Shown piece after piece: positions 10,344 to 62,111 of a stretch of DNA of 64,000 nt. This DNA is from Deltaproteobacteria bacterium (GTDB lineage Bacteria > Myxococcota > XYA12-FULL-58-9), in the NCBI GenBank assembly GCA_016218825.1, contig JACRCV010000063.1, forward strand, positions 1,070 through 65,069, in the 5' to 3' direction. The notes beneath the pieces were generated by a model. The model worked only from the letters and a program-made list of their open reading frames with translations, made no database searches and had not been told where the DNA came from. Positions within the stretch are counted from its first letter, which is position 1; every line of letters starts with the position of its first letter. The translations under genes and the position numbers were made by a program.

Positions 10344-11843
10344 CTACCCCAGCCAGCCGGTGACGAGGCGTTTGGCGATCGCGAAGTAGGTGTCGGGCAG
10401 CAGGCCGAACACCAGCGTCAAGGCCGCGCACAGCCACAGCCCGGCCGACAACCACGCCGATTCGACCCGCTTCTCCTCGGTGCCCGCGGCGCGCATGTAC
10501 ATGACCACGGTGACCCGGAGGTAGTAGAACGCGCCGATGGCGCTCGCGAGCACCGCGATGATCACCACGCTGGTCCGACCCGCTGCCACCGCCGCCGAGA
10601 ACAACGCCAGCTTGCCGAAGAAGCCCGCGGTCGGCGGGATGCCGGCGAGCGAGAACATGAACAGCGCCATCGCCAGGCCGAACGCCGGGTAACGGTGGCC
10701 GGTCCCGGCCAGGCGCTCGATCGGCAGGTCGGGGCGGCGGTCTTCGCCGCGCTCGAACGCCAACACCACGCCGAAGGCGCCGAGCGTCATCGCGGTGTAG
10801 CCGAACAGGTAGTAGGCGACCGCCTCGACGGCGTAGCTCTTCGGCTCGGCGATGAAGGCCGCGACGCCGACGAGCACGTAGCCGGCGTGGGCGATGCTGG
10901 AGTAGGCCAGCATTCGTTTGATCTGAGTCTGGCGGATCGCCAGCAGGTTGCCGAGCACCATCGTCAGGACGCCCAGCACCTCGAAGATCTGGATCGCGGT
11001 CTCGGTGCCGCGCTCGCCGCCGGCGATCAAGGTCGCGGCGACGAAGCGCAACACGCCGGCGAAGGCCGCCGTTTTGATGCCCACCGCCATGAAGGCGGTC
11101 GACGGCGTCGGCGCGCCCTCGTAGACGTCCGGGGCCCACATGTGGAACGGCACCGCGGCGATCTTGAAGCCCAGGCCGCACAACAACATCGCGACGCCGA
11201 TGAAGCCGGCGACCGAGACCTCGTGGCCCAGGAACGCGGCGCCGAGCGCCTTGAAGGTCAACGCCGGCGTGCCCGAGAGCCGGCCGACCTCGCCGTAGAG
11301 CAACGCGATGCCGAAGAGCGCGAACGCCGACGCGAACGCGCCGTAGACGAAGTACTTCAGCGCCGCCTCCTGCGAGCGCCGCGAGCTGCGCCGATAGCCG
11401 GCGAGCACGTAGACCGCGAGCGACATGGTCTCGATGCCGATGAACAAGGTCAACAGGTCGCCGGCCAGCGCCACCATCAGCATCCCGACCGCGGCGAACA
11501 ACACCAGGCTGAAGAACTCGCCGTGCGACAGGCCGTGCTCTTGCAGGTAGGCGGCGGCGAAGACCACACCGAAGAACGCGCCGCACAAGGAGGTCAGGCC
11601 GAAGAGCACGCCGATGCCGTCGATGACGATGGCGCCGGAGAACAACGTCCGCGTGCCCTCGACGTTCCACAACAGCACGCCGGCGGTGAACAGCCCCACG
11701 AGGCTCAACACCGCGAGGTGGGTGCTCGAGCCCGGCGCCGGGCGCTTGTCGCCGCCGGTCACCGTGAGCAGCAACACCGCGAGCGCGGTCAGCACCAGGA
11801 TCCAGAGCGGCGACAGCCCGCCGAGGTCACCGAGGATGTTCAT
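10344..11843 (-). CDS. nuoN: NADH-quinone oxidoreductase subunit N
   Basis: Polytopic NuoN/ND2-type sequence (FHMWAPDVYEGAPTP, LAYSSIAHAGYVL). The start ATG overlaps the nuoM stop (ATGA). Confidence 0.9.
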   Translation of the reverse strand: MNILGDLGGLSPLWILVLTALAVLLLTVTGGDKRPAPGSSTHLAVLSLVGLFTAGVLLWNVEGTRTLFSGAIVIDGIGVLFGLTSLCGAFFGVVFAAAYLQEHGLSHGEFFSLVLFAAVGMLMVALAGDLLTLFIGIETMSLAVYVLAGYRRSSRRSQEAALKYFVYGAFASAFALFGIALLYGEVGRLSGTPALTFKALGAAFLGHEVSVAGFIGVAMLLCGLGFKIAAVPFHMWAPDVYEGAPTPSTAFMAVGIKTAAFAGVLRFVAATLIAGGERGTETAIQIFEVLGVLTMVLGNLLAIRQTQIKRMLAYSSIAHAGYVLVGVAAFIAEPKSYAVEAVAYYLFGYTAMTLGAFGVVLAFERGEDRRPDLPIERLAGTGHRYPAFGLAMALFMFSLAGIPPTAGFFGKLALFSAAVAAGRTSVVIIAVLASAIGAFYYLRVTVVMYMRAAGTEEKRVESAWLSAGLWLCAALTLVFGLLPDTYFAIAKRLVTGWLG

Positions 11844-13860
11844 GGCCGACCTCCCTTGTCAGCGGCCGGCGCGTCCAGAGCCGGCGTCGGGTTCTTCGCC
11901 CGCATCGGCACCAGCTTCTCGAGCGGCCCCGGCAGCCGGCCGAACTTGCGGTTCCACGGCAGGCGGCGCTCGCCGCTGTTGTCCACCGGCGCGGTCGGCG
12001 GCGACTCGGGCATGACCCCCAAGATCCGGGGCGGCGTGGCTTCGGTGCCGGTGACCGGTGCCGGCGTGACCCCGGGAACCGCCTTCAGGTTGGCGCGGGC
12101 GCGAAACTGCGTGGCGTACGCGGTCGCCGCGGGGTTGATGGTCTCCAGGAACGGCTGCGGGAACACGCCCATCAGCACCGCGACCAGCACCAGGGGGGCG
12201 AGCACCAGGGTCTCGCGCGGGCTCAGGTCGACGAGCTTCTCGTTCTCGGGGTGGGTGAGCGGCCCGAAGAACACCCGCTGGGTGGCGACCAACAGGTACA
12301 CCGCGGCGAAGATCACCCCGGTCGCGGCGATGACCGCGAGCAGCGCGAAGACCTCAGTGAACTTGGCGGTGTCATTCAGAGGCCCGGCCAGCGGTCGAAC
12401 CAAGAGGCCGCCGCCGAAGGTCCCGAGCGGCGGCGCGACGAACAGCAGCGCCAACGCCAGAGCCAGACCGATCGCGGCGACCTTGGTCCACACTTGCTCG
12501 CGCGGCAGGTGGCGGCCGACCGCGGCGGCGATCAGCACCACCGCGAGCAGCGCCACGAGCTCGGCGGCGATGATGCCGGCCCAGGCGAAGTCGCTGGTGA
12601 CGATGTTCAAGGTGGTGCCCTCGCTCTGGAAGGTCCCCATCAGGATCAAGAACTCGCCGACGAAGCCGTTCAGCCCCGGCAGGCCCGCGGAGCTCAAAGC
12701 GATCAGCACGAAGATCGCGGCGTAGCGCGGCATCACCTTCGCGAGGCCGCCGAAGTCGTCGAGCAGCCGGGTGTGGCGGCGCTCGTAGATCACCCCGACC
12801 AACAAGAACAGCGCGCCGGTGGAGATGCCGTGATTCACCATCTGCAAGATGCCGCCCGACAGTCCGGTCACGGTCATCGCCGCGATGCCGAGCATCACGA
12901 AGCCCAAGTGCGACACCGAGGAGAACGCGATCAGGCGCTTGAAGTCGGTCTGCACCATCGACACCAAGGCGCCGTAGATGATGCCGATGACCGCGAGCAG
13001 TCCGAGCGCCGGCATGAAGGACGCCGCGGCCTTGGGGAACAGCCACATCGCGTAGCGCAGGAAGCCGAAGGTGCCGAGCTTCAACAACACCCCGGCCAGG
13101 ATCACCGAGCCGCCGGTGGGCGCCTCGACGTGGGCGTCGGGCAACCAGGTGTGGAACGGGAACATCGGCACCTTGATCGCGAACGCCACCGCGAACGCCA
13201 AGAACAGCCAGATCTCGGCGCCGCCCAGGTCGGTCTGCGGCAGGCGGTTGACGATCTCGGCGAAGCCGAACGACATCCCGCCCTGGGCGCGCACCGCGAA
13301 CACCAGGTAGAGGATCGCGACCAGCATCAACAGCGAGCCGGCCATGGTGTAGAGGAAGAACTTGAGGGCGGCGTAGATCCGCCGTCTCCCGCCCCAGACG
13401 CCGATCAAGAAGTACATCGGCACCAGCATCACTTCCCAGAACACGTAGAACAGGAAGAGGTCGGTCGCGACGAAGGCGCCGAGCATGCCGGTCTGCAGGA
13501 ACAGCAAGCAAACGATGTACTCCCGGGCCCGCTCGGTGACGCTGGAGTAGGTGCTGAGGATGACGATCGGCGCCAAGAACGTGGTGAGCACCACGAGCAG
13601 GACGCTGACGCCGTCGACGCCGACGCTGTAGGAGATGCCGAGGGTCGGCACCCAGGCGACCTCTTCGACGAGCTGCATCGCGGTGGTCGCGGGCACGAAC
13701 AGGTGCCACATCCACAGCGCCAGCACCAAGTCGATGACCGCGACCGCGATCGCGAAGCCGCGCACGCCCGAGTGCTCCTCGCGCGGGAACGCCAACGCCA
13801 GGACGGCGCCGACGAGCGGTAGGAACACGATGAAGGTGAGCAGGTGGCTGGAGATGAAGC

Positions 13861-13864
<4 letters not shown>
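11840..13864 (-). CDS. nuoM: NADH-quinone oxidoreductase subunit M (with C-terminal Pro-rich extension)
   Basis: NuoM/ND4 motifs (FPFHTWLPDAHVEAPT, LIAFSSVSHLGFV). ATG at 13862-13864 overlaps the nuoL stop TGA; about 674 aa including a ~90-aa low-complexity tail. Confidence 0.9.
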
Positions 13865-39306: not shown

Positions 39307-40827
39307 TCAACGCTTCGCGCTGTCGGTGGTCGCCGGGGCCTCGGCGCCGCGGTTGCCCCGCCCTGTGATCACCAGCCCCCCGATCCCGAGCGCGACGAAC
39401 AGCAGCGCCTGCACCAGCGTCTTCGGCTGCATCGGCGTGGCGGTGACCGCCAGCAGTACGAAGCCGAGCCCCGCGGCCAACAGCACACCGTAGATCGTGG
39501 TCATGATGGTGCGCGCCTTGCGGCGGGTGCCGTCGGTGTCGGTGCCGAGGAAGCGGGCGAAGGCGTAGAGACCGAGCGCCGCGCCGACGTCGAGGACGGC
39601 GAAGGCGCCCCAGAACCACGCGATCGTCCCGCCGGCGTCGGCGGCGCCGACCAATGGCTTCAGCACCGCCTTGTACGCCAGCGCGCCGATGTTGGAGCCG
39701 AGCAGGGCCCCGAACACCCCGTAGAGGAAGGCGTAGCCCATGTACACCGCCTTGCGATCTGCGGGCGCGATCAGGCCGACCAAGGAGATGTACTTGGGGT
39801 GCGCGGTCATCTCGCCGATCGAGAACACCGTGATGCCGAGGATGAAGATCCAGGGATTCTGCGAGCTCGCGAGCAGCAAGAAGCCGACGGCGCCGATGCC
39901 CATCCCGGTGATCATCGTCGTCAGCGCCGGGCGGTCCTTGACGAGCCGGCTCACCAGGAACTGCAGCAGGATGATGGTGAGGGCGTTGATCGTGGTGACG
40001 TGCTCGGCGTCGAATTGGAAGGTGGCGCCGATGCCGAGGGTCGCGAGCCCGCCGTTCACCACGGCGTCCACCGGGCCTTTGGCGACGAAGTCGTCGAGGT
40101 ACCAGAGCACCGTGGAGAAGTTCTGGAAGTAGAGGATCCAGAAACCCGAGTACACGACGATCATCAGCATGAAGCGCGCGTCGCCGAGCACCTCGGCCGC
40201 GCCCAACAGCGACTGCGACAGGGTCTTCTTGGACGCCGGCTTCGGGGGCTCGCGATACAAGAGCAGCGTCGGCAGGATCATGGCGCCGGTGTAGACGGCC
40301 GACGCGGTGAACACCGCTTGCCAGGAGATCCCCTTGAGCCACGACACCACCAGGGGGGCGATGAGCGCGCCGAGGTTGATGGTCCAGTAGAAGATCGCGA
40401 AGCCGAACGACGAGGTGCGCTCGTCGGTGCTGCGGGCGATGGTCCCGGAGATGATCGGCTTGAAGAGGCCGGCGCCCACCGCCATCACGAACAGGCAACC
40501 GAACACCAGCAGGTAGCTGTGCGCCCGGCCGGACGCGAAGTAGCCGACGGCCAACAGCGCGAAGGCTACGAGCAGCATGCGCCGGTAGCCGTAGCGATCC
40601 GCGAGGGCGCCGCCGAGGATCGGGATCACGTAGACCGCCGCGAAGATCGAGCCCTGCAGAAAGCCGACCGCCTGCGGATCGAAGCCGAGCCCGCCCTTCG
40701 TCACCTCGGCGGTGAGGTACACCGCGAGCACCGAGTTGAGGCCGTAGTACGCGGCGCGCTCGAAGAGCTCCATCACGTTGACGACCCAGAAGACAAACGG
40801 AAAGTCGCGCAAGCGGACGCTGCCCAT
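39307..40827 (-). CDS. POT-family (proton-dependent oligopeptide) MFS transporter
   Basis: ERAAYYGLNSVLAVYLT and GGALADRYGYRRML match the PTR2 signatures; 12 or more TM helices. Confidence 0.85.
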   Translation of the reverse strand: MGSVRLRDFPFVFWVVNVMELFERAAYYGLNSVLAVYLTAEVTKGGLGFDPQAVGFLQGSIFAAVYVIPILGGALADRYGYRRMLLVAFALLAVGYFASGRAHSYLLVFGCLFVMAVGAGLFKPIISGTIARSTDERTSSFGFAIFYWTINLGALIAPLVVSWLKGISWQAVFTASAVYTGAMILPTLLLYREPPKPASKKTLSQSLLGAAEVLGDARFMLMIVVYSGFWILYFQNFSTVLWYLDDFVAKGPVDAVVNGGLATLGIGATFQFDAEHVTTINALTIILLQFLVSRLVKDRPALTTMITGMGIGAVGFLLLASSQNPWIFILGITVFSIGEMTAHPKYISLVGLIAPADRKAVYMGYAFLYGVFGALLGSNIGALAYKAVLKPLVGAADAGGTIAWFWGAFAVLDVGAALGLYAFARFLGTDTDGTRRKARTIMTTIYGVLLAAGLGFVLLAVTATPMQPKTLVQALLFVALGIGGLVITGRGNRGAEAPATTDSAKR

Positions 40828-40850: not shown

Positions 40851-41684
40851 CTAGAGCACAGGTGGCGAGGCCGCGGCAAACAGCGCCCGGCGCTCGTCGA
40901 CCCGGCCCACCGCGAGCAGGATGCCGAAGATGATCGCCTCCGGCCGCGGCGGACAGCCGGGGATGAAGACGTCGACCGGCAGGGCCTCGGCGACGCCGCC
41001 GGCGCTCGCGTAGCTTTGCCCCGCGATGCCGCCGGAGCAGGCGCAGGCGCCGACCGCGATCACCAAGCGCGGCTCGGGGACCGCCTCGTAGGTTCGGCGC
41101 ACCGCGGTCGCGAGGTTGCGGGTCACGGGCCCGGTGACCATCAGGCCGTCGGCGTGACGCGGCGAGGCGACGAAGTCGACGCCGAGGCGCCGGACGTCAT
41201 AGACCGGATTCAACAGCGCCGTCAGCTCCCAGTCGCAGGCGTTGCACGAGCCCGAATCGAGGTGGCGCAACGCGAGCGACCGGCCGAGCACGCGTCGGAT
41301 CTGTCCTGCGACCTGCCCGGCGGCCGGCGGCGCCGTGGCCGCGGTGGCTCGGCCGTCGGCGTCGCTCGCCACCTGGAGCATCAGGCTTTCGCGTCGTCGA
41401 GACGCGAGCTCGACCTGGCGACCGAGCTCGACGCCGCGATCCGGCGCGCCCTCGGCACAGCGGCCGCAGAACACGCACCGCCCGAGGTCGATGCTGTAGG
41501 CCGCCGTCGATCCGCCGCCGATCGCGCCCGTCGGACACACCGAAGGCGACGGCAGCAGGTCAACCTGGGCGCCCGGCCGGACCTCGGGAGCGCCGCGAAA
41601 GCGCTCGGGGGGCTTCGCGGGCGTCGCCGGATAGGCGGAGGTCACGACGCCGGTGCGCAAGCTGTTGAGGATGGCGGTCAGCAT
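40851..41684 (-). CDS. fused HycF-like ferredoxin / HycG-NuoB-like [NiFe]-hydrogenase small subunit
   Basis: N-terminal CPTGAI...CVFCGRCAEGAP is one 4Fe-4S motif with the partner motif degenerate. The C-terminal ...GSCNACDWE...VGACACSGG...PGCPP matches the NuoB/HycG cluster-binding pattern. AAGGAGG precedes the ATG at 41682-41684. Confidence 0.7.
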   Translation of the reverse strand: MLTAILNSLRTGVVTSAYPATPAKPPERFRGAPEVRPGAQVDLLPSPSVCPTGAIGGGSTAAYSIDLGRCVFCGRCAEGAPDRGVELGRQVELASRRRESLMLQVASDADGRATAATAPPAAGQVAGQIRRVLGRSLALRHLDSGSCNACDWELTALLNPVYDVRRLGVDFVASPRHADGLMVTGPVTRNLATAVRRTYEAVPEPRLVIAVGACACSGGIAGQSYASAGGVAEALPVDVFIPGCPPRPEAIIFGILLAVGRVDERRALFAAASPPVL

Positions 41685-41706
41685 GCAGAGCCCTCCTTGT
41701 GGGTTC

Positions 41707-43329
41707 TCACCGGTCGGTGCACGAGTAACAGAGCTCGAAGCTCTTATTGACGAGCGGAAAATCGGGAATGATGGAGGTCTGGGCCGCGAGGGGTACCGCC
41801 GGCCAGTTGGCGTAGCTCGCCGAGCGCAGGTGGTAGCGGTCGATGCGGCCGGCAGCGTCGGCGCGCAGCCAGTGGATCGCGGCGCCGCGCGGCGACTCGA
41901 TCGCGCTGATGCCGATCCCCCCCGCCGGCAGCTCCTCGGGCATCGGGGCGCAGATCGGGCCCGGCGGCACGTCCGCGAGCATCGCCTGCAGCAGCCGGAT
42001 CGACTCCCGCGCCTCGGCGACGCGCACGTTGAGGCGGGCGTGAACGTCGCCGTCGGTATCGGTCGCCACCGCCACCGCCAACCCGGTCGCGCTCCCATAC
42101 GCCGCGTGCGGGTGGTCGCGCCGCGCATCGCGGTTGACGTCGCTGGCGCGCGCCGCCACGCCGGTCACGCCGAGGGCGATGGCGTGCTCCCGCGCCAACA
42201 CCCCGGTGGTATCGAGGCGGTCGACGACCGACGGGTTGTTCTCGATGCGCGCCACCAGGCTCGTGAGCCCGGCCGCGGTCGCCGGCAACAGCGCGTCGAT
42301 GCCGCGGCCCGAATCGGCGGTCAGATCGAGGCGCGCGCCGCCCGGCGTCACCAGGCCGCGCAAGAAGCGGTTCCCGGCCAGGCGCTCGGCCACCTGCTGC
42401 ACCGCCTCCTTCAGCCGCAGGCCGGCGGAGGTGCCATAGTGGTAGCTGGCGCCGGCGGCGATGTTGCCGATGTCGCCCAGGTGGTTGTAGAGCCGCTCGA
42501 GCTCGAGCGCGAGGCTCCGCAGCACCCGTGCCCGGCGCGGCACCTCGACCCCGGCGACCTGCTCGACGGCCTCGCAGAAGCCGAGCGCGTGCGACACCGA
42601 GCACACGCCGCACATCCGCTCGGCGATGTAGAACGCATCGCCGAGCGTGCGCCCCTCGATGCGTTTCTCCAGCCCGCGGTGGGTGTAGAACAGCCGCGCC
42701 TCGAGGTGGAGCACGCCCTCGCCGACGGTGCTGAAGCGGAAGTGTCCGGGCTCGATGATGCCGGCGTGGATCGGGCCCACCGGGACCTCGAGCACGCCTT
42801 CGCCCTCCACCCGCAGATGCGGGAGCTCCTCGCTCGGCTCTACGGCAGGGCGCTCGCGGGCGTCGAAGTCCTTGCGCAGCGGATAGCGGCCCTTCGGCCA
42901 GCCGTCGTGAACCACCAGCGACCGCGGGTCCGGGTGATCGGTGAACACGATCCCCAACAGGTCTTGCGCCTCGCGCTCGTGCCAATTCGCCGCCGGCACC
43001 CGGTCGGAGATGGACGGCAGCGCCGGGCGCGCCGGGTCGAGCGCCGCCACCAGCGTCACGAAGAGGTCGGGGAGCGCCCCCGGGCCGGTGGCCGGCTCGA
43101 AGACGTAGCGAACCTTGAGATCCCTCTCGGCGGTCGCGCGCTCATCGGTCGCCACCAGCGTCGCCAGGCTCAAGCCGGCGGCACCCAGGTCGGCGGTCGC
43201 CTGCTGCACGTCGGCGGCGCGATGCAGGCGCAACGTCAGATCTTGGCGGCGCGGCCCGGGCTCGAAGGTCGCCAAAGCGCCGACCTTCGCCTCGAGCTCG
43301 CGCGCCAGTGTTTGGGTCGCCTCAGCCAA
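41707..43329 (-). CDS. group 4 [NiFe]-hydrogenase large subunit (NuoC-NuoD fusion, HycE/HyfG-like)
   Basis: PVGPIHAGIIEPGHFRF...THRGLEK, N-terminal Ni-ligand motif RMCGVCSVSH and C-terminal motif ELCYSCTDR with no C-terminal extension. The TTG start overlaps the end of the upstream gene by 8 nt. Confidence 0.8.
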   Translation of the reverse strand: MAEATQTLARELEAKVGALATFEPGPRRQDLTLRLHRAADVQQATADLGAAGLSLATLVATDERATAERDLKVRYVFEPATGPGALPDLFVTLVAALDPARPALPSISDRVPAANWHEREAQDLLGIVFTDHPDPRSLVVHDGWPKGRYPLRKDFDARERPAVEPSEELPHLRVEGEGVLEVPVGPIHAGIIEPGHFRFSTVGEGVLHLEARLFYTHRGLEKRIEGRTLGDAFYIAERMCGVCSVSHALGFCEAVEQVAGVEVPRRARVLRSLALELERLYNHLGDIGNIAAGASYHYGTSAGLRLKEAVQQVAERLAGNRFLRGLVTPGGARLDLTADSGRGIDALLPATAAGLTSLVARIENNPSVVDRLDTTGVLAREHAIALGVTGVAARASDVNRDARRDHPHAAYGSATGLAVAVATDTDGDVHARLNVRVAEARESIRLLQAMLADVPPGPICAPMPEELPAGGIGISAIESPRGAAIHWLRADAAGRIDRYHLRSASYANWPAVPLAAQTSIIPDFPLVNKSFELCYSCTDR

Positions 43330-44794
43330 GGATGATCTCCGTGGCGCGCATCAGCACCTGGTCGAACACCGCCGGGATGGCGAGCCCGAAGAGCACCATC
43401 ACCGCCACCAAGAGCAGCATGCCGAAGAGCGGCAGCCGCGCCTCCGGCCCTCGGTCAGCGCTCGGGCCGGCGACGCCGAAGGCCATTTGCCCCACGTGGT
43501 GGATGAGCCCGGCGAAGATGATCACCACCATCACCAGAAAGACCGCGACCGTCAGGTAGCGACCGGCCGCGAGCCCGGCGCTGATGATCAACAGCTCGCT
43601 GATGAAGATCGAGAACGGCGGCGTGCCGGCCAACGAGAACGCGCCCATCATCAGCAGGGTCGCGGCCCAGGGCGCGATGCCCAAGAAGCCGCGGATGATC
43701 CGCATGTCACGGGTGCCGTAGCGGCCGATCACGTCGCCGGCGATCAAGAACACCAGGGCCTTGGTGACCCCGTGGTTGATCACGTGCAGCAGGGCGCCGT
43801 AGGTCCCGACCCGACCGCCGAAGCCGAGGCCGAGCGCGATGATGCCGACGTGCTCGACGCTGTGGTAGCCGAGGAGGCGCTTCAGGTCGTGCTGCACCAG
43901 GATGAAGGGGGTCGCGACGACCACCGACACCAGGCCAAAGAGGAGCAGCAGGCCTTCGCTGAGCTCGGGGCCGCAGGCGCCGCGCGCGATGGTGTGAAAG
44001 CGAATGATCCCGAACAACGCACACTTGATGAGGGCGCCCGACAACAGCGCCGACACCGGCGTCGGCGCCTGGCTGTGGGCATCGGGGAGCCACAGGTGCA
44101 CCGGGGCGAGGCCGGCCTTGGTGCCGTAGCCCACGATCACGAAGATGAAGCCGATGCGGATGATCCCGGGGTCGAGGCGGCTCGAGATCGCGGCGATGCT
44201 CGACCAGTTCATCGCACCGGCAAACACGTCGCCCTGGGCGTGCGCCGCGGCGCCGTACACCAACACCGTGCCGAACAGGCCGAAGGAGATGCCGATGGTG
44301 GTGACGATGATGTACTTCCACGCCGCCTCGAGGCCGAGCTTGTCGCCGTGGAAACCGACGAGCAGGGCCGAGGTGATCGTCGTGCCCTCCATCGCGATCC
44401 ACAAGATCCCGAGGTTGTCGGCGAGCACGGTGACCACCATCGTCGCGATGAAGCCGTGGACCAGCGCGTAGTAGTAGTGCAGGCGGTCGGCGCGCATGTG
44501 GCCGCGGGCGAGCTCGGCGCGCATGAAGCCGCCGCTGGCGATCGACACCGCCACCGCCAACAGACCGACGAGCAGCAGGAACACCACCGCGACGGCGTCG
44601 GCGCGAAAGGTGCCGAGCGCGCTCACCGGGCCGACGGTCGCGACCTCGAAGGCGATCGCCAGCCCCAAGACGAGAACCGCCAAGGCGCTCGTGAGATCCA
44701 GCGCCGCGAGCAGGCGTCGGTCGCGGCCGAGCAACATCACCAGGCCAAAGACGGCGGGGACGGCGGGGCAGAGCCAGAGGAGGTTCGAGGTCAT
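43322..44794 (-). CDS. NuoM/N-like antiporter-type membrane subunit (HyfF/HycC-like)
   Basis: WLPDAHSQAPTPVSALLSGALIK and LLGYHSVEHVGIIALG; about 14 TM helices; ATG 2 nt after the upstream stop. Confidence 0.75.
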   Translation of the reverse strand: MTSNLLWLCPAVPAVFGLVMLLGRDRRLLAALDLTSALAVLVLGLAIAFEVATVGPVSALGTFRADAVAVVFLLLVGLLAVAVSIASGGFMRAELARGHMRADRLHYYYALVHGFIATMVVTVLADNLGILWIAMEGTTITSALLVGFHGDKLGLEAAWKYIIVTTIGISFGLFGTVLVYGAAAHAQGDVFAGAMNWSSIAAISSRLDPGIIRIGFIFVIVGYGTKAGLAPVHLWLPDAHSQAPTPVSALLSGALIKCALFGIIRFHTIARGACGPELSEGLLLLFGLVSVVVATPFILVQHDLKRLLGYHSVEHVGIIALGLGFGGRVGTYGALLHVINHGVTKALVFLIAGDVIGRYGTRDMRIIRGFLGIAPWAATLLMMGAFSLAGTPPFSIFISELLIISAGLAAGRYLTVAVFLVMVVIIFAGLIHHVGQMAFGVAGPSADRGPEARLPLFGMLLLVAVMVLFGLAIPAVFDQVLMRATEIILG

Positions 44795-44796
44795 CG

Positions 44797-45453
44797 TCAG
44801 CCCTTGAGGCTCTCGAGATCGGCGATGTCGGCGTCGACGCTCGAGCGCACCCGCAACAACAGGATCCCCATCACCAGCGCGCCCAAGACCACGTCGAGGA
44901 TGACGCCGATCTCGATGATCAGCGGCATCCCCTGGCTGATCGCCATCGCCGTGAAGAAGATGCCGTTCTCCGAGGCGAACAGGCCGACCATCTGCACCAA
45001 CGCCTTGCGGCGCGAGGCCATCACCAGCACGCCGATGAGCGTCAGGGCGATGCCCACCGGCAACGCGTTGCCGGTGATGGTCTGGCGCACCGGGCCGAGC
45101 GACGCCGCGAGGTGGAACGCCAGCACCACGATGCCGGCGGCGAACGCCAGCGTGACGTTGATCGGGATCACCGCCTCGATGTCGCGCCGGATCTGGATGC
45201 GGCGGATCACCCAGAGCAACAACCAGGGGAGGAGGACGCCCTTGGCGACGATGGTGATGCCGGCGATGATCCACAGATCGACGTTGCCGGTCGCGGCGGC
45301 GAGGACCGCGCCGGCGATCCCGAGGAAGACCGCCTGCACCGCCACCGCGTAGATCGCCCGATACAGCTGGCCGGCGGCGAGGATGAGCAGGGTGGTGAAG
45401 AGCAACAACGCCCCGAGGACGTCGATGAGGCGGGTGGCCAGCTCGACGCTCAT
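44797..45453 (-). CDS. small membrane subunit (HyfE-like)
   Basis: 218-aa polytopic protein. Its position and size match hydrogenase-4 component E. The track 940-aa ORF is a run-on; the real ATG is at 45451-45453. Confidence 0.55.
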   Translation of the reverse strand: MSVELATRLIDVLGALLLFTTLLILAAGQLYRAIYAVAVQAVFLGIAGAVLAAATGNVDLWIIAGITIVAKGVLLPWLLLWVIRRIQIRRDIEAVIPINVTLAFAAGIVVLAFHLAASLGPVRQTITGNALPVGIALTLIGVLVMASRRKALVQMVGLFASENGIFFTAMAISQGMPLIIEIGVILDVVLGALVMGILLLRVRSSVDADIADLESLKG

Positions 45454-46400
45454 AGGATCCTCAGCGCCAGCGCCAGGAAGGCGCACACCAGGCCCAGGCC
45501 CAAGAACTGCGGCACCCGGAAGAAGCGCAGCTTGGCGTACGACGACTCGACGACGCCGAGGAAGGTGGCGAGCACCAGCACCTTGGCGGTGAAGGCCGCG
45601 AGCGCCAGCGCCACCGCTCCCGGCTCGGCGCTCGGCATCAGCCCAAAGGGAAAGAACAGCGCCGCGACCAGGGACAAGATCACGAGCTGCTTGGTGTGGG
45701 TCGCGAGCACGATGCACGCCAGGCCGGGGCCGGAGTGCTCGAGCAGCATGCCCTCGTGGAGCATCGTCAGCTCGAGATGGGTGTCGGGGTTGTCCACCGG
45801 GATCCGTCCGGTCTCGGCGAGGGTCAGCACCAGCATCGCGAACAGCGCCAGGAGGTCCGGCGCCTGCCACGCCAGCGCCGCGAGCGTCTGGCGCCGCAGG
45901 GCGAGATCTCCGAGGTCGGTGCTCCCGCCCGCGACCGCCACCGAGAACACCGCCAACATCAGCCCCGGCTCGACCAACAGACCGATGGTCATCTCGCGCG
46001 ACGCCCCCATGCCGCCGAAGGCGCCGCCGGCGTCGAGCGCGCCGATCGCACACAGGAAGCGCGCCAGCGCCAAGAGCGCCAACAGCAGGATGGCGTCGCC
46101 GAGCGGCAGCAGCGCGGCGCCCGCGGGCGCCCACAGCACCGGCAGCATGAAAGTGGTGGCCAGGGTCGCCGCCAACACCAGGACCGGCACGACGCGGAAG
46201 AAGGGGCTCGCGGAGTCGCTCTCGACCGTGCCCTTCTTCAACAGCTTGGCCAGATCGCGGTACGGCTGCCAGACGCTCGCGCCCTGCCGGCACTGCAGGC
46301 GCGCCTTGAGCTTCTGGATGAAGCCGGTGACGAACGGCGCGCACACGGCGAGCAGGGCTGCCTGGAGCACGACGCGTCCGAGGTGGGTGGCGATCTCCAT
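45450..46400 (-). CDS. NuoH-like membrane subunit (HycD/HyfC-like)
   Basis: Polytopic, with ...GRIPVDNPDTHLELTMLHEGMLLEHSG... typical of NuoH/HycD; ATGA overlap with the downstream gene. Confidence 0.75.
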   Translation of the reverse strand: MEIATHLGRVVLQAALLAVCAPFVTGFIQKLKARLQCRQGASVWQPYRDLAKLLKKGTVESDSASPFFRVVPVLVLAATLATTFMLPVLWAPAGAALLPLGDAILLLALLALARFLCAIGALDAGGAFGGMGASREMTIGLLVEPGLMLAVFSVAVAGGSTDLGDLALRRQTLAALAWQAPDLLALFAMLVLTLAETGRIPVDNPDTHLELTMLHEGMLLEHSGPGLACIVLATHTKQLVILSLVAALFFPFGLMPSAEPGAVALALAAFTAKVLVLATFLGVVESSYAKLRFFRVPQFLGLGLVCAFLALALRIL

Positions 46401-46403
46401 GAC

Positions 46404-48404
46404 TCAGGTCTTTGCGAACAGCAGCAGCGCGACCACCAAGGTTCCGAGCACGAAGGCGATATAGCCGTGGATCCGGCCGGTGCTGTAGGCGCGAACGCCC
46501 TCGGCCGCCGTGGTGATCCAATGCTTGAGTCGCGCGTAGAGCACGGTCTCCGCGAGGTCGACCACTTCGCCGCTGTAGCGCAGGCGGTGGATGACGTACG
46601 GCGACGTTCCGGTTTCTCTCGCCACTTGCCGTCGCGGGCGATAGATCGCGGCGAAGATCAGGCGCAGCGGCTTCGCGAACGCGGTGGCGGTGTAGTCGAA
46701 GCGGGGCGTCGGGGCCATGCCGCAGGTCCAGGTCGGCGCCCGCCGCAGCGGCGCTCGACGCGGCCAGCCGCGGAGAATCCAGGCCGCGGCGACGAGCACC
46801 GCGAACAACGCGGCCACCGCCGTCACCGAGATCGAGGTCGGGGCGTGGCCGAGCGGGCCGGCACCCGCAGAGAGAACCAACGGTCCGTGCGCGGTGACCA
46901 CGGCGCTGGCGCCGACGCCGCCCAAGAGCTCGAGCGTCGGTCGATCGAGCAGGCGCATCGCGTAGCCCGGCACCAACCCGAGCACCAGGCAAAGCACCGC
47001 GAGCAGCGTCATCCCGGCGAGCATCGGCGCCGGGGACTCGGCGGCCTGCTCGGCGTGTGTCGATCGCGGCCGGCCGAAGAAGGTGACGCCGAACGCCTTG
47101 GCAAAGCAGGCAGCCGCGAGGCCCCCCGTCAACGCGAGCATCGCGGTGGCGACGCCGGCGAGTAGCCCCGAGGCGCCGCCCAGCCGGGCGCCGCCGAGCA
47201 GCAGGGCCTGGAAGGTCATCCACTCGCTGACGAAGCCGTTGAGCGGTGGCAACGCCGAGATCGCGACCGCGCCGAGCAAGAACAGCCACGCGGTCCAGGG
47301 CATGCGCCGCGCCAAGCCGCCGAGCTCTTCGATGTTGCGGACCCCGGTGCCGCGGATGACGCTGCCCGCACCCAAGAACAACAGCCCCTTGAACGCCGCG
47401 TGGTTCAAGGTGTGCAGCAGCGCCGCCGCCAGCGCCAGGGTCGCGAGGTCGCGGCCGGCGCGGTCGCCGCACAGGAGCATCGCGACGCCGGCGCCGATGA
47501 GGATGATGCCGACGTTCTCGACGCTGTGAAACGCCAGCAGGCGCTTCAGATCGTGCTGCTGCAGCGCCAACAGCACGCCGATCACCGCCGACACCGTCCC
47601 GAGGAAGAGCACCGTCCAACCCCAGGAGGCGGGCAGCGCGCCGCCGGCCGGCGCGAGGATGTCGAAGCCGAAACGGAAGATGCCGTAGATCGCGACCTTC
47701 AGCATGACGCCCGACATCAGCGCCGAGGCGTGGCTCGGCGCCGCCGGGTGGGCCTTGGGCAGCCAGACGTGCAGCGGCACGATGCCGGCCTTGGCGCCGA
47801 ACCCGGCGAGGGCGAGCATGAAGAAGGTCGTGCGCGTCGGGCCGTCGAGGGTACGTGCCGCGGCGCGCAGCGCGTCAAAGTCGAAGGCCCGGGCGTGCTC
47901 TTTGAGCCCGAGAAACACCACGAGGAGGGCCGCGGTCCCGGCGTGCGCCATCACCAGGTACAACAGGCCCGCCCGGGTGTTCTCCGGGTTCTTGACGTCG
48001 CAGACGACGAGGAGGTAGCTCGCGAGCGTCATCCCCTCCCAGGCCAGCAGGAAGGTGAGGCCGTCGCCGGCACAACAGACGAGCGCCATGCAACCGACGA
48101 ATACGCCGAGGGCGAGGGTTTGCACCACCGGCGCCGGCGCGTGCGCGCCCAGATACGCCGGGCCGTAGACGGCGGCGGCCACCGTGATCAGGGTGACGAC
48201 CAGGAGGAAGAACGCCGACAGGCCGTCCACCGAGAGCGACAGCACCGCGAACGGAAACACGGGCGGCAGGTCGACTCGCGGCCGTGGCGCCGCCTGGCCC
48301 AAGAGCAGCGACAGCGCGAACGCGGCGCCGGCGAGGGCCGCGGCGAGGATCAGGAGATGTCCGGCTAAGACCGCGGCGCGTGTCAGCGACCAACGACCGT
48401 CCAT
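46404..48404 (-). CDS. NuoL-like antiporter-type membrane subunit (HyfB/HycC-like)
   Basis: HVWLPKAHPAAPSHASALMSGVMLK and LAFHSVENVGIILIG. ATG at 48402-48404 (alternative TTG at 48443); stop 3 nt before the next gene. Confidence 0.75.
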   Translation of the reverse strand: MDGRWSLTRAAVLAGHLLILAAALAGAAFALSLLLGQAAPRPRVDLPPVFPFAVLSLSVDGLSAFFLLVVTLITVAAAVYGPAYLGAHAPAPVVQTLALGVFVGCMALVCCAGDGLTFLLAWEGMTLASYLLVVCDVKNPENTRAGLLYLVMAHAGTAALLVVFLGLKEHARAFDFDALRAAARTLDGPTRTTFFMLALAGFGAKAGIVPLHVWLPKAHPAAPSHASALMSGVMLKVAIYGIFRFGFDILAPAGGALPASWGWTVLFLGTVSAVIGVLLALQQHDLKRLLAFHSVENVGIILIGAGVAMLLCGDRAGRDLATLALAAALLHTLNHAAFKGLLFLGAGSVIRGTGVRNIEELGGLARRMPWTAWLFLLGAVAISALPPLNGFVSEWMTFQALLLGGARLGGASGLLAGVATAMLALTGGLAAACFAKAFGVTFFGRPRSTHAEQAAESPAPMLAGMTLLAVLCLVLGLVPGYAMRLLDRPTLELLGGVGASAVVTAHGPLVLSAGAGPLGHAPTSISVTAVAALFAVLVAAAWILRGWPRRAPLRRAPTWTCGMAPTPRFDYTATAFAKPLRLIFAAIYRPRRQVARETGTSPYVIHRLRYSGEVVDLAETVLYARLKHWITTAAEGVRAYSTGRIHGYIAFVLGTLVVALLLFAKT

Positions 48405-48473
48405 GGCGGCGCGGATGGTACTCCTTCCGGCCGGTGAGTCCAACCACGACGGCGCGAAGGTCGACCGCCGCGC

Positions 48474-50351
48474 CTACAGCGCTTCGAGCGTGGCGCGCTC
48501 GGCGTCGGTGTAGCCGAGCCCCTTCCAGTCGAGCACCGACCGCGGCCCGTGACAGCGCTCGCAGCTCAGGGCGCCGTCCTTGCGGATCGCGTGACTGATC
48601 TCCATCGACGCGTCGGCGGGGATGTAGCGCGGCTCGACTCTCTCGAGGGCCCGGACGTCGTCGTACGCCGCGGTGTCCCAGCGCGGCATCTCCATGTACG
48701 AGACGAACTCGTCCATCAGATAGACCTTGAACATCAGGCCGTAGAGCATCGCCATCATCGGCTTCTGAACCTCGGCCTGCGCCGCGGCGTCGGGCTTGCC
48801 GGCCGCGAGATAGACCGGCAGGTTGTAGGGCACGAACATGCCGCCGAACGGGCCCATGTTCTGCAAGTCGATGTGCTGCTTGCCGTTGTACACCTTGAAC
48901 GGATACAGCTTCGACGGCTTCAGGCCCGCGATCGGGCGCATCTTGGCGTCGTACCACGCGGCGTAGTCGAAGGTCTGATACTCCGGCCAGACGTGCTGCG
49001 GGCGGTAGAAGCGGTACAGCCTCTGGCCGTTGGGGTTGTCGCCTATCGGGTTGCCGAGGAAGGTCGCGTCGCCGGTCCACCAGGCATAGGTGATCCCCTT
49101 GCCGGGCTCGGTGTCCTTGACGGTGTCGGTGTAGATGTGGAGGCCGGCGGCCTCTTCGTACTCGGTCTGCGAGAAGTCGCGCATCGTCGTCGAATCGGGG
49201 TGCAACGACGGGATGTGGCAGGTCTGGCAGGCGAGACGCCGGCCGTGGTCGTTGAGCGCCTGCGCCTGCGCCATGCTCTCGTGCGGCGCCGCGCCGTGAC
49301 AGCTCTCGCACGCCACCTCGACCCCCGGCAGGTCGTTCGCCATCAGGGTGGTGGTGTGCGTGCCCCTGGGGATGTAGTGCCCCTCGGTCAGGTGACACTC
49401 GGTGCAATTCATTCCCTGCGCCGCGTGCACGTCCCAGGAGGGCGAGTAGGGCGTGCCGCGCTTGCTGCCGGGGTGCAGCACCCGCGGTCGGCTGTGGCCG
49501 ACGTTCTGCAGGCTCTGCATGTACGAGCCGGCCGTGGGGTCGACGTAGACGTCGCCGCCCATGTTGTGCTGGTGGCAGCGCAGGCAGGTCTGGGCGGTGG
49601 TGCGGGTGACCGAGAGCACCGCGGCCAGCGACCGGTCCTGGTCCCAGCGCTTGCGGCCGTCGGCGTCGGTCACCACCTGCTTCTTGTTCATGTCGTAGGC
49701 CTGCGCGTGGCAAATGAGGCAGTCGATGGCGTTGGCCTCGGCTTCGAGGGTCCGATAGCCGGGCATCAATTCGCCCAGCGGCGCCTGGTACTGGCCGCCG
49801 ACGTGACACTGGCCACAACCCTCCGACAGGGTCCGGCCGTCTTTGAGCTCCACGGTCTCGGCCCAGGCGGTGAACGCGAACGAGCCGGGTTTCGGGCACG
49901 GGCGATCGATCTTGCCCATCGGAAAATCGTCGGCGAGCACGCCGTTGAAGCCCCACACGTTCGGGTGCGCGGTCGAGAAGAACCGGTAGTGGACGCTGGT
50001 GGTCACGTTCTCCATCAGGTCGACCTGCTTCTCCTTGCCGCTCTTCGCGTCTTTGACCTTGATCTCTCGGTGGCAACCGACGCAGGTCTCGGGCCCGGAA
50101 AACGACGTCAGCCCCGCCTTGGCGAACAGGTCGACGTGCTTGAGCTTCACGCCCGGGAGCTCGGCCTCGAGCGCCGCGGCCACGGCCGCGAGCTTGGCGG
50201 CGTCGAAGGTGAGGACCGGGAGCGCGACCGCCGCCGGGCGGCTTTGCGCCGGCAGCATCATGTTGATGATGTGCGGCCAGAATCGATACAGGCCGAGCGC
50301 CAGGGCGACGATGAGGGCAGCGACGCCGGCGACGCGGTTGGGCTTGGTCAT
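48474..50351 (-). CDS. membrane-anchored octaheme c-type cytochrome
   Basis: Eight CxxCH motifs (CVGCH, CGQCH, CLICH, CLRCH, CTECH, CESCH, CQTCH, CERCH); N-terminal signal-anchor VAGVAALIVALALGLY. The stop is 30 bp (or 69 bp with the alternative start) upstream of the first hydrogenase membrane subunit gene. Confidence 0.8.
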   Translation of the reverse strand: MTKPNRVAGVAALIVALALGLYRFWPHIINMMLPAQSRPAAVALPVLTFDAAKLAAVAAALEAELPGVKLKHVDLFAKAGLTSFSGPETCVGCHREIKVKDAKSGKEKQVDLMENVTTSVHYRFFSTAHPNVWGFNGVLADDFPMGKIDRPCPKPGSFAFTAWAETVELKDGRTLSEGCGQCHVGGQYQAPLGELMPGYRTLEAEANAIDCLICHAQAYDMNKKQVVTDADGRKRWDQDRSLAAVLSVTRTTAQTCLRCHQHNMGGDVYVDPTAGSYMQSLQNVGHSRPRVLHPGSKRGTPYSPSWDVHAAQGMNCTECHLTEGHYIPRGTHTTTLMANDLPGVEVACESCHGAAPHESMAQAQALNDHGRRLACQTCHIPSLHPDSTTMRDFSQTEYEEAAGLHIYTDTVKDTEPGKGITYAWWTGDATFLGNPIGDNPNGQRLYRFYRPQHVWPEYQTFDYAAWYDAKMRPIAGLKPSKLYPFKVYNGKQHIDLQNMGPFGGMFVPYNLPVYLAAGKPDAAAQAEVQKPMMAMLYGLMFKVYLMDEFVSYMEMPRWDTAAYDDVRALERVEPRYIPADASMEISHAIRKDGALSCERCHGPRSVLDWKGLGYTDAERATLEAL

Positions 50352-50566: not shown

Positions 50567-50950
50567 ATGGCGACCTTGGCCGAACAATCCTGTCAACCTT
50601 GCCGCGGCGGCGTGCCGCCGTTGTCTGCAGATCTGGCGCGGGCGCTCACGACCGAGCTCGCCGGCTGGACGATCATCGACGGTCACTTGACGAAGCCCTA
50701 TGACTTCATCGACTTCGCCGAGTCGCTCGCCTTCGTCGATCGGGTCGGCGAGCTCGCCGAGTACGAAGGCCACCACCCCGACATCTACCTGACCTGGGGG
50801 CGGGTGCGCATCGAGCTCTGGACCCACAAGGTGAACGGGCTGACGACCAACGACTTCATCATGGCCGCGAAGATCGACCGGATGTTGCAGCGGAGCATCC
50901 GCGTTCCGCCGTCGACCGTGGATCAGCCCGGGACGACCGCGCACCCGTAG
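50567..50950 (+). CDS. pterin-4a-carbinolamine dehydratase (PCD/DCoH)
   Basis: [EDKH]x3GHHPx5,6[YW]x9Hx8D signature: EYEGHHPDIYLTWGRVRIELWTH...D; GGGAGG RBS. Confidence 0.8.
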   Translation: MATLAEQSCQPCRGGVPPLSADLARALTTELAGWTIIDGHLTKPYDFIDFAESLAFVDRVGELAEYEGHHPDIYLTWGRVRIELWTHKVNGLTTNDFIMAAKIDRMLQRSIRVPPSTVDQPGTTAHP

Positions 50951-53900: not shown

Positions 53901-54645
53901 TCACGCAGATCCACGCGTCGCTGCAGTACTGGCCGTCGGGACAGGCGCCGGTCGGGTGGTCCTGCGAGCAGGGAAGCGGCACGCAGCCGGTGGCCTCGCA
54001 GACCTGATCCTCCGGGCAGGCGCCCGGGATCCCGGGGCGGCACTGGATGGTCTTGCAGGTCCCGCTGGTCGCGTCGCACGCCTGACCAGATGGGCATTGG
54101 CCGGCCGGGTTCGCGCGGCTGCACGGGGTATCGATCGGAATGCAGCGGCCCTCGAAGCAGGTCAATCCCGGGTCACACCAGCCGCCGGGGTGCTCGGGAG
54201 AGCATGGGTAGCGGTTCGGCACGCAATGGCCGCCGATGCAGACCTCGCCGTGGTCGCACCACCCGTCGGGGCGCGCCGGCGAGCATGCCGTGGACGGGTC
54301 CGTGGTGCACTTACCGTCGGCGTCGCAGCCCTGGTCGGGCGGGCATACGCACCAGTCGGGGTTCGGCTCTTTGCACCCGGTCGCCGCGCAGCAGGCGGCA
54401 GCATCGACGCAGAAGCACACGCCCCCGGCGCACAGGCGGCCGCGGGCGCAGTCGCCATCCGGTTGGTCTTTCGAGCACGGTCCCGGCGAGGGGACGCACT
54501 CGCCGAGGGTGGTGTCGCAGACCCAGTCGATGCCGCACTCGGAGGAGGAGGTGCAGGGCACGGCGTGCCGGGGCTCTTGAATGACCAGCAGCCCCGAGCA
54601 CCCAGGGGTGACGAGCACGAGCAACGAAGCCAAGCGCAGGTTCAT
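50923..54645 (-). CDS. very large Cys-rich lipoprotein with vWA domain and DVDCGGxCxxC repeats
   Basis: Signal plus lipobox VTPGCSG. The N-terminal half is ~12 PxGxCxxGxxC modules. vWA MIDAS sequence ILVALDRSASM ... LLVTDGEA follows. Six DVDCGG[ST]CxxC repeats and a ~180-aa C-terminal domain complete the protein. Confidence 0.7.
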   Translation of the reverse strand: MNLRLASLLVLVTPGCSGLLVIQEPRHAVPCTSSSECGIDWVCDTTLGECVPSPGPCSKDQPDGDCARGRLCAGGVCFCVDAAACCAATGCKEPNPDWCVCPPDQGCDADGKCTTDPSTACSPARPDGWCDHGEVCIGGHCVPNRYPCSPEHPGGWCDPGLTCFEGRCIPIDTPCSRANPAGQCPSGQACDATSGTCKTIQCRPGIPGACPEDQVCEATGCVPLPCSQDHPTGACPDGQYCSDAWICVIIGKCGADTDCDPNQYCDTALTCRATGQCAVDEDCSVEQAVEYGQGYACPAGTCSERLTCTMPTDCKPGKFCSTAGNCLAPPGCDTTPDCPTGTTPPKVCSTAGICIDENTCLVRADCPDPVGEICSATSECITAGTCNLDADCAPGHSCNAPDCVVSGTLCVTNDLKYTGCNATEYSCCDSASSTDCCPLGQRCFYDAGCSTPGTCSCITPLTCVTAADCPTGTFTCDDSHHCVTSEACATTGCGATGKCSATGACLPAGGCATAADCAVGETCNVQWQCEPVPECTMARLSAGDLAPPNILVALDRSASMQICGAGESLAGCCGYSCSDPTITITCADANSGRAPYCIAGVPSCSTTGTPRCSDGTVGCSGGGSPTCTGASAPFTLECPGSQTAICTSQTPDCNTGGHGETTSRWEQAVQAVTDVIADQAGNANFGLALFPHPTGTETCVTDCNWYSCSDRSNNNAGAIDVRVAANQQAAIGAALVPTMPGGGTPTGQTLRAIGADLFAAGLDDPATQNAVLLVTDGEAIGDVDPATQKVCRPPCTDTTKNGDESDVDCGGTCAPCIDGGLCLTANDCEHNICRTGMCRAATCGDAGQNGSETDVDCGGACGPCADGASCTTGADCASGNCQLLRCLVPACGDGIKNGSETDVDCGGSSCAANCADTKGCADDADCTSSACQAGICRIGTCNNGGKDGLETDADCGGSACGPCVDGKTCTADGDCTSAFCNGAPAGVCATPQCKDGLLNGSETDVDCGGSCPACGGGKTCALPGDCVSATCAPCDTSCSSNDCNSGTCTNAACPMCDGGVGNCQAQACRDCIATQYACKVNHALDQLYAGTPRIKTYVVAFNFTATSGNLNCHAVHGRTSAGLCPGLTDANCAASASTCYYDTQQLDELKAALAAIVKQVRGCSLPLGPLPVRADIDKIYLYLETPNASGPPTLQRVDRWVNWIYDPGGNRIDVFGAPCETLKEGGVVPVVVYGCAVVPG

Positions 54646-61770: not shown

Positions 61771-62111
61771 TTGACGAACCTCTCGAGGACCGTGGGTTGC
61801 CACGAAGCGTATCACGCGGGCACTCCCTTGGCCGACAATTCTGCCACCTTGCTCCCGTCGAGGCCCCAACCCGGCTAGTCCGCGGGCGACCGGGCGCGGA
61901 TACGTCCGCCGCGCCGCCCCGACTCCAAAGGCGCGCCAGGTCGTTTGCAGGACGATTCGTCCACGCCGCAGGCCGCGAGAGGCTGCGCCGTCCACTGCTC
62001 GCCCGCGGCCCGACCAGGTCTCTGGTATGATCCAGGGACTTGGACACGCAGGGCCGCGACCGGCACCGGCACGATGTCTGCAACGTCGGACCGGCAACGA
62101 GAGGTCTCCCG

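Follow-up and report, generated by a model that had tools for sequence, protein, structure and literature searches.

A compact six-gene Hyf-type [NiFe]-hydrogenase cluster without formate dehydrogenase, beside an apparently unrelated octaheme cytochrome c gene in a myxobacterial contig

Introduction

The Hyf-like hydrogenase of Sulfurospirillum is independent of formate dehydrogenase; reduced ferredoxin has been proposed as its electron donor and H2 as its product (PMC6242987). Putative hydrogenase clusters of group 4f, named 'Ehf', comprise six or seven genes (ehfA-F), for example in Methylocystis (10.1101/2025.08.29.672306). A six-gene group 4f cluster without formate dehydrogenase is found in Desulfitobacterium hafniense (ACL22288-93; PMC9888536), and group 4f hydrogenases of candidate phyla cluster with Lentisphaerae sequences, some of the 4f sequences in the literature being devoid of the Ni ligands (10.1101/328856). 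Among multiheme cytochromes, MmcA is told from octaheme tetrathionate reductase (OTR) by synteny, because mmcA always lies in an Rnf operon and otr does not (10.1101/2023.04.20.537704). Here, we analyzed a 64-kb window, the whole stretch of DNA considered, from a myxobacterial contig (JACRCV010000063.1). A cluster of six Hyf-like [NiFe]-hydrogenase genes lies in it directly behind an octaheme cytochrome c gene. A first-pass annotation of this DNA had raised the possibility that the cytochrome and the hydrogenase are coupled, with two adjacent operons as its fallback.

We conclude that the product of the six genes (48404..40851) is an energy-converting [NiFe]-hydrogenase of a minimal, autonomous Hyf type and that the neighboring cytochrome is independent of it, a reading to which we assign a probability of about 0.78. 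The observations behind it are the gene content, the alignment of the Ni ligands, the pattern of the FeS ligands, the lack of conserved synteny with the cytochrome gene and a conserved element upstream of hyfB.

Results

Gene content of the hydrogenase cluster

Genes in the window, which has a G+C content of ~70%, were called from the reading of open reading frames (ORFs) together with the G+C content at third codon positions (GC3). Seven genes lie on the minus strand between 50351 and 40851, the cytochrome gene first and the six hydrogenase genes after it (lengths in amino acids, aa):

50351..48474, minus strand: octaheme cytochrome c, 625 aa, with eight CxxCH motifs and a membrane anchor; judged to stand outside the hydrogenase system
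48404..46404, minus strand: HyfB-like membrane subunit of the antiporter type, 666 aa; opens the hydrogenase operon
46400..45450, minus strand: HyfC/HycD (NuoH-like) membrane subunit, 316 aa
45453..44797, minus strand: HyfE-like small membrane subunit, 218 aa
44794..43322, minus strand: HyfF-like antiporter-type membrane subunit, 490 aa
43329..41707, minus strand: [NiFe] large subunit in which, as in HycE/HyfG, NuoC- and NuoD-type parts are fused, 540 aa
41684..40851, minus strand: fused electron-transfer and small subunit, 277 aa

Pfam and NCBIfam profiles confirmed every one of the assignments, and the coordinates and gene list of the first-pass annotation were correct. The HyfB-like protein matched Pfam Proton_antipo_M (E 2e-54) and NCBIfam NF005086 'hydrogenase 4 subunit B' (644 bits) and has 39% identity with E. 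coli HyfB. The HyfC-like protein matched Pfam NADHdh (E 4e-40), with 36% identity to both HycD and HyfC of E. coli. The HyfE-like protein was matched over its full length by NCBIfam NF008556 'hydrogenase 4 membrane subunit' (E 3.9e-21; 25% identity with E. coli HyfE), and the HyfF-like protein by NCBIfam 'hydrogenase 4 subunit F' (479 bits; 42% identity with E. coli HyfF). The group 4 membrane arm is present, with the NuoH-like (NADHdh) subunit and two Proton_antipo_M proteins that match NCBIfam hydrogenase 4 subunits B and F.

The gaps between the hydrogenase genes are, in order, 3, -4, 2, -8 and 22 nucleotides (nt), and the cytochrome gene is separated from hyfB by 69 nt. All six hydrogenase ORFs are intact, and the four large ones that were measured have a coding-type GC3 of 0.91-0.95. 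No gene for formate dehydrogenase, HyfA/HycB or CO dehydrogenase was found in the cluster or elsewhere in the 64-kb window, which agrees with what had been read before. As there is neither a formate dehydrogenase nor a HyfA/HycB protein, and the large subunit has no C-terminal extension (see below), the enzyme is not a formate hydrogenlyase (FHL).

The large subunit keeps the Ni ligands and needs no C-terminal cleavage

A Pfam search using the large subunit revealed the families Complex1_30kDa, Complex1_49kDa and NiFeSe_Hases, and its best match in the PDB was E. coli HycE in the FHL structure (PDB ID 7Z0S, chain E; E 5e-80). The N-terminal CxxC segment, RMCGVCSVSH, aligned with RVCGICGFAH of HycE, and the C-terminal segment, ELCYSCTDR, aligned with DPCYSCTDR. 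Therefore, the two CxxC pairs are the Ni ligands for which they had been taken in the first-pass annotation. The L1 motif is defined in HydDB as C[GS][ILV]C[AGNS]xxH, and the L2 motif, [DE][PL]Cx[AGST]Cx[DE][RL], is matched by ELCYSCTDR. Both Ni-binding motifs, with their four cysteines, are kept in all 120 closest database homologues. Judged by these canonical and invariant residues, the large subunit is of the genuine [NiFe] type and the enzyme a real group 4 hydrogenase, not an Ehr or complex-I relic, as had been argued earlier.

None of the same 120 homologues has a single residue after the C-terminal motif, and the window protein likewise stops at ...CYSCTDR. The E. coli HycE and HyfG sequences run on beyond CTDR; the C-terminal tail of HycE, ~32 residues long, is cleaved by HycI. 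Because the large subunit studied here has no such extension, cleavage of the HycI/HyfK type should not be needed and no HycI-type protease is expected. A search for such a protease had been proposed as a check on the cluster. No maturation protease gene was found in the 64-kb window, but none is to be expected for a large subunit that already ends at CTDR.

The small subunit is a fusion that retains one ferredoxin-type cluster

The last gene of the cluster had been described simply as a small subunit. Its NuoB-like part is real (Pfam Oxidored_q6, E 1.4e-30; NCBIfam NuoB family), but the protein turned out to be a fusion of HyfH/HycF-like and HyfI/HycG-like parts in which the first ~104 residues form a ferredoxin domain. 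Residues 1-104 are HycF/HyfH-like (NCBIfam 'formate hydrogenlyase complex iron-sulfur subunit', E 1.2e-16; 33% identity with HycF). Residues ~130-265 are HycG/HyfI/NuoB-like and carry the proximal-cluster cysteines; BLASTP matched them to HycG and HyfI, with 43% identity to HyfI.

The cysteine segments of the proximal [4Fe-4S] cluster, CNAC...GAC...GCPP, are intact and conserved across relatives. In the HycF-like part, both ferredoxin motifs are incomplete: motif 1 has lost its first three cysteines and keeps the fourth (CPTGA), and motif 2 has lost its fourth cysteine and keeps CxxCGxC. Presumably, the retained cysteines hold exactly one [4Fe-4S] cluster, the equivalent of N6b in the wiring of NuoI/Nqo9, next to the proximal cluster, and it is the distal cluster that has been deleted. 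All 16 legible relatives in the alignment share the one-cluster cysteine pattern, including a Terriglobia homologue that is 44% identical. The distal cluster is missing cleanly and throughout the family, so that its loss does not represent decay.

An exhaustive search of 1.84 billion representatives was made with the small subunit, and the best 150 representatives of 50%-identity clusters were examined. Fused small subunits made up 62 of these 150; among the 62, 24 have one CxxCxxC as found here and 11 have two full motifs. By this count, the HycF-HycG fusion is a common architecture. The number of intact ferredoxin motifs in fused subunits of this type was zero, one or two among the representatives. 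This range suggests that the electron-input wire was shortened repeatedly in the hydrogenase lineage.

The six-gene order is conserved at related loci, and the cytochrome gene is not part of it

Homologues of the large subunit at 65-77% identity are abundant, and one Lentisphaerae protein is 75% identical. The identical six-gene order was found at ~22 related loci in this identity range, from metagenome-assembled genomes (MAGs) of Myxococcales, Lentisphaerae, Planctomycetia, Isosphaerales, Tepidisphaerales and Vicinamibacteria. No homologue of the cytochrome was found at any of the ~22 loci, and their 10-kb flanks contained no ORF with at least two CxxCH motifs, except for one five-heme ORF 8 kb downstream at one locus (L022). 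The gene upstream of hyfB differed in every lineage; acetyl-CoA hydrolase, a 532-aa unknown protein, MurJ, PfkB kinase, tagaturonate epimerase, TPR, nitroreductase, BNR and CBM genes were seen in this position. Neither an FdhF-type formate dehydrogenase nor a HycB/HyfA connector appeared in any of the gene lists of the related loci.

More distant loci had other arrangements. At three loci from Acidobacteriota (L031, L032 and L034; 45-48% identical), the NuoB-like small-subunit gene precedes hyfB instead of following the large-subunit gene, and no match to HyfE was found. We take the Rv0082-Rv0087 cluster of Mycobacterium tuberculosis to have the same order as these three. A further set (L037-L076, from Planctomycetota, Verrucomicrobiota, Gammaproteobacteria and others) has large subunits that are 33-37% identical and the order NuoH-like, small, large, antiporter-like; it probably represents another group 4 subgroup or an Ehr subgroup.

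The spacer upstream of hyfB contains a conserved promoter-like element

The 69-nt spacer between the cytochrome gene and hyfB contains the following element:

48443..48415, minus strand: promoter-like element TTGGAC-N17-TACCAT, 10 nt ahead of the hyfB ATG

Alignment of the DNA upstream of hyfB in relatives revealed the conserved pattern CT[GT][GT]AC-N17-TA[CGA][CGA]AT, 10-13 nt before the ATG, at 6-7 related loci (L013, L014, L019, L022, L023, L025 and L026). The 64-kb window has a single match to the element pattern, where 0.03 matches would be expected by chance, and a pattern built from the relatives only, with the first base omitted, also has its sole match in the window at 48443..48415. 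From this comparison, we predict that the element is the hyfB operon's own sigma-70-type promoter and that the operon is read from a near-leaderless mRNA.

A GGAG in the spacer was considered as a Shine-Dalgarno sequence and rejected, because it lies 16-18 nt from the ATG, too far for this role, and there is no in-frame alternative start between the two. The position of the element and this distant GGAG suggest that Hyf-type operons of this kind are expressed from near-leaderless mRNAs. No FNR/CRP-type box (TTGAT-N4-ATCAA, at most three mismatches) was found upstream of the cytochrome gene or of hyfB. A terminator or a separate transcription start between the two genes had been proposed as the feature that would speak for separate units; no terminator hairpin was found in the spacer, but the promoter-like element is conserved in relatives.

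The octaheme cytochrome is a distant member of the OTR family

The cytochrome had been described as a membrane-anchored protein of 625 aa with eight heme motifs, encoded at most 69 bp upstream on the same strand, and this description proved accurate. Its CxxCH motifs are at residues 90, 179, 211, 256, 316, 348, 375 and 597, and it has an N-terminal transmembrane helix. The only PDB sequence match was the Shewanella OTR (PDB ID 1SP3; phmmer E 4.5e-11, profile E 4.1e-18). An AlphaFold model was made from an alignment of 45 sequences, with a mean predicted local distance difference test (pLDDT) of 77.6 and a predicted template modeling score (pTM) of 0.80; a single-sequence model with a pLDDT of 35.7 was discarded. 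A Foldseek search using the model revealed 1SP3 as the only significant fold match (E 4.9e-14, probability 1.00, 501 aligned columns). TIGR04315 matched the cytochrome at E 7e-27 with 94.5 bits, which is below the family cut-off of 375. Within the OTR family, the cytochrome forms a distant branch that has a membrane anchor and does not belong to the Shewanella-type subfamily.

OTR enzymes reduce tetrathionate, nitrite and hydroxylamine in the periplasm, and several members of the cytochrome family carry the NCBI label 'nitrite reductase'. An invariant RPCPKPGSF segment (C152, K154) lies 25 residues ahead of heme motif 2, in an N-terminal region that did not align with 1SP3; this segment may be the source of the lysine ligand of the catalytic heme.

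The family consists of proteins of ~625-630 aa with 60-67% identity from Zixibacteria, Calditrichia, Bacteroidetes, Spirochaetota, KSB1 and others. The gene was solitary at all seven loci of full-length homologues (62-67% identical). No hydrogenase gene was found at any of the seven, five of which were shown by gene lists to have unrelated neighbors. In two of the contexts an ECF sigma factor gene adjoined the cytochrome gene, in two an ArsR-type regulator gene, and in two ScdA/DUF1858/hemerythrin/Crp genes were nearby. A scan of metagenome contigs with the cytochrome gave four loci, one with a full-length homologue and three with homologues at 29-30% identity.

Genes of the ScdA_N/DUF1858, DUF438-hemerythrin-PAS and Crp-family types lie near two distant cytochrome homologues (L083 15229-16170 and L084 10741-14113). 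Such genes are linked to nitric oxide or nitrosative stress. These contexts hint that the cytochrome family acts on nitrogen oxides.

Flanking genes and other features of the window

The seven genes are flanked by the following neighbors:

50567..50950, plus strand: pterin-4a-carbinolamine dehydratase, divergent neighbor (Pfam Pterin_4a, E 7e-29)
40827..39307, minus strand: MFS/POT-family transporter, downstream neighbor (Pfam MFS_1 and PTR2), 23 nt past the small-subunit stop

Because the pterin-4a-carbinolamine dehydratase gene upstream is divergent, the cytochrome gene heads its own minus-strand unit. The transporter gene had no homologue at any of the related hydrogenase loci examined. Considering that it lies equally close and is equally non-conserved, tight same-strand spacing is not specific to the cytochrome gene and is a general property of how the host genome is packed.

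Elsewhere in the window, three consecutive genes on the minus strand (10344-16047) encode a NuoL-like protein (732 aa, Proton_antipo_N and Proton_antipo_M), a NuoM-like protein (ORF at ~13861..11840, read by eye) and a NuoN-like protein (504 aa). No further nuo genes adjoin them, and the genes upstream are for a DUF374 protein and for a Cys/Met PLP enzyme; this group appears to be either part of a split nuo cluster or an antiporter module in its own right. Very large Cys-rich proteins with repeated Cys-rich modules are encoded at 50923-54645 (minus strand, 1240 aa), 54715-62097 (minus strand, ~2460 aa) and 62031-63998 (plus strand, >650 aa). The 50923-54645 protein had no Pfam match, and the 62031-63998 protein has a MopE-type metal-binding motif. 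In our reading, these three are typical of the secreted proteins of myxobacteria. The 3' ends of the 1240-aa gene (minus strand) and of the convergent pterin-4a-carbinolamine dehydratase gene (plus strand) overlap by 28 nt, at 50923-50950. Two neighboring long ORFs at 21393-24221 and 23285-26980, both on the plus strand, each end in a C-terminal DUF1554. The gene at 27776-29140 (minus strand) is for a sigma-54 activator that has FHA and Yop-YscD domains, and a Crp/Fnr-family regulator (cNMP_binding and HTH_Crp_2) is encoded at 7792-8967 (plus strand), ~40 kb from the hydrogenase genes.

Discussion

Relation between the cytochrome and the hydrogenase

The cytochrome gene adjoins the hydrogenase genes at none of the ~22 related hydrogenase loci and at none of the seven cytochrome loci, and a promoter-like element stands between the two genes. 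This does not support the coupling proposed in the first-pass annotation; its fallback, two adjacent operons, fits the evidence best, since the adjacency is not seen in relatives and the hydrogenase genes have a promoter-like element of their own. The octaheme cytochrome is thus most likely an unrelated neighbor of the hydrogenase operon. Several points weigh against this reading. The promoter is a comparative prediction, only 8 of the 12 positions of the element agree with the sigma-70 consensus, and a generic consensus promoter scan called nothing in the spacer, the element included. No terminator-like hairpin was detected in the 69-nt spacer either by a scan or by folding (z-score -0.17 against shuffled sequence), so that read-through from the cytochrome gene into hyfB is possible. 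The nearest genomes compared are 77% (large subunit) and 67% (cytochrome) identical, and an adjacency confined to closer lineages would lie outside this comparison. As to the hydrogenase itself, no hyp maturation, ferredoxin or pyruvate:ferredoxin oxidoreductase genes were found in the 64-kb window, and its HydDB subgroup could be 4a or 4f.

The same junction can be read as co-expression without physical coupling, in which the two systems share a transcript or an anaerobic regulon because both serve metabolism at low oxygen, as two electron sinks (a periplasmic reductase and proton reduction) with no direct electron exchange. The common strand, the 69-nt gap free of terminator-like structure and the position of the cytochrome gene at the head of its own unit, from which transcripts could extend into hyfB, are compatible with it. 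However, neither set of loci repeats the adjacency, the conserved hyfB-proximal element has been kept and neither upstream region has an FNR-type box (at most three mismatches), and we regard this explanation as unlikely. Still less probable, and strongly doubted by us, is a partnership like that of MmcA and Rnf, in which the cytochrome would dock on the membrane arm and join the hydrogenase to periplasmic or extracellular carriers. The cytochrome is membrane-anchored, is encoded directly upstream of hyfB and weakly matches TIGR04314 (E 1.5e-13), but nothing in the hydrogenase subunits points to a transmembrane electron path, and the six genes make up a complete module whose conservation does not involve any cytochrome. 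To our knowledge, the membrane arms of the solved group 4 complexes, FHL (7Z0S) and Mbh (6CFW), contain no redox cofactor, and we know of no electron path across the membrane in such enzymes. Moreover, in the synteny test that separates MmcA from OTR, the cytochrome behaves like otr (10.1101/2023.04.20.537704). A version of the partnership to which we give the same very low weight is that an OTR-type cytochrome was recently recruited in front of the Hyf operon in one uncultured myxobacterial lineage, is co-transcribed with it by read-through and acts together with the hydrogenase, an MmcA-like conduit to periplasmic acceptors being one option. If true, it would be the first multiheme-linked group 4 hydrogenase, and a cytochrome that is a true partner would change the view of how group 4 hydrogenases connect to respiratory chains. 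The least credible reading takes the cluster for an Ehr/complex-I-like relic or an inactive pseudo-operon. The window has no hyp genes or maturation protease, and the HyfH-like domain has lost one FeS cluster; yet the four Ni-ligand cysteines are in place and invariant in 120 homologues, the proximal-cluster cysteines are intact, the six ORFs are intact, with coding-type GC3 in the four large ones measured, and the distal cluster was lost cleanly across the family. The conservation of Ni and FeS ligands largely refutes this reading, to which we give almost no weight.

Proposed function of the six-gene hydrogenase

The autonomous hydrogenase that we favor is independent of formate dehydrogenase and probably coupled to ferredoxin. 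A low-potential cytoplasmic donor, most likely reduced ferredoxin, would reduce the single [4Fe-4S] cluster of the HyfH-like domain, from which the electrons would travel via the proximal [4Fe-4S] cluster in the NuoB-like domain to the NiFe site of the large subunit. Protons would be reduced to H2 on the cytoplasmic side, in a reaction that is probably reversible, and the membrane arm of HyfC, HyfE, HyfB and HyfF may couple this reaction to the translocation of H+ or Na+. The large subunit would be made without a C-terminal extension, skipping the HycI/HyfK-type endopeptidase step, and the operon would be driven by its own promoter 10 nt ahead of the hyfB ATG, giving a near-leaderless mRNA. 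The cytochrome would act independently as a membrane-anchored periplasmic reductase of the OTR family, plausibly on nitrite, hydroxylamine or sulfur oxyanions.

A compact six-gene Hyf-type hydrogenase without formate dehydrogenase is widespread in soil and sediment MAGs of Myxococcota, Planctomycetota, Lentisphaerota and Acidobacteriota. It is marked by the fused single-cluster HyfH-HyfI subunit and the protease-independent large subunit, and is of interest for H2 turnover in these largely aerobic lineages. The main value of the present analysis is corrective, in that the adjacency of genes, taken alone, was misleading.

Comparison with known systems

The cytochrome and the Shewanella oneidensis OTR (1SP3) both have eight CxxCH hemes and a C-terminal heme-8 segment, ...LDW..LGY. 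However, their identity is ~20%, and the window cytochrome exceeds OTR in length by ~180 aa, having insertions and a membrane anchor at its N terminus. The arrangement at this locus resembles MmcA-Rnf of Methanosarcina acetivorans in that an OTR-related multiheme gene directly precedes the genes for an ion pump that faces the cytoplasm and is linked to ferredoxin. The synteny of mmcA and rnf is universal in its clade (10.1101/2023.04.20.537704), whereas the adjacency of cytochrome and hyf genes was seen only in this contig. Furthermore, Rnf flavins span the membrane, whereas the membrane arms of group 4 hydrogenases have no known cofactors.

The six hydrogenase proteins have orthologous subunit types in E. 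coli Hyf/FHL-2 (HyfABCDEFGHI) and Hyc/FHL-1 (HycBCDEFG; 7Z0S), both of HydDB group 4a, and share the order HyfB, C, E, F, G, H, I. Compared one subunit at a time, the module comes nearest to E. coli Hyf. The identity per subunit is 25-43% (35% for HycE), and the likeness extends to the NuoC-NuoD-fused large subunit with the same Ni-ligand positions and to the NuoB-like small subunit. In contrast to the E. coli systems, the module has no HyfA/HycB, HyfD, FdhF, FocB, HyfR or HyfJ, its HyfH and HyfI are fused with the loss of one of the two HyfH clusters, and its large subunit has no C-terminal extension and needs no HycI/HyfK cleavage. The lack of formate dehydrogenase is not unusual, because Hyf enzymes independent of it have been described (PMC6242987). 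The Sulfurospirillum Hyf is likewise a Hyf-type group 4 cluster without formate dehydrogenase; it belongs to the Epsilonproteobacteria, its locus has ten locus tags (SMUL_2383-2392) against six genes here, and the likeness is one of description, not of sequence. With the group 4f Ehf clusters, the module shares six genes, the lack of formate dehydrogenase, membrane-bound and uncharacterized status and relatives among Lentisphaerae, a circumstantial likeness that is likewise by description only. Unlike some group 4f sequences, the family described here keeps its Ni ligands.

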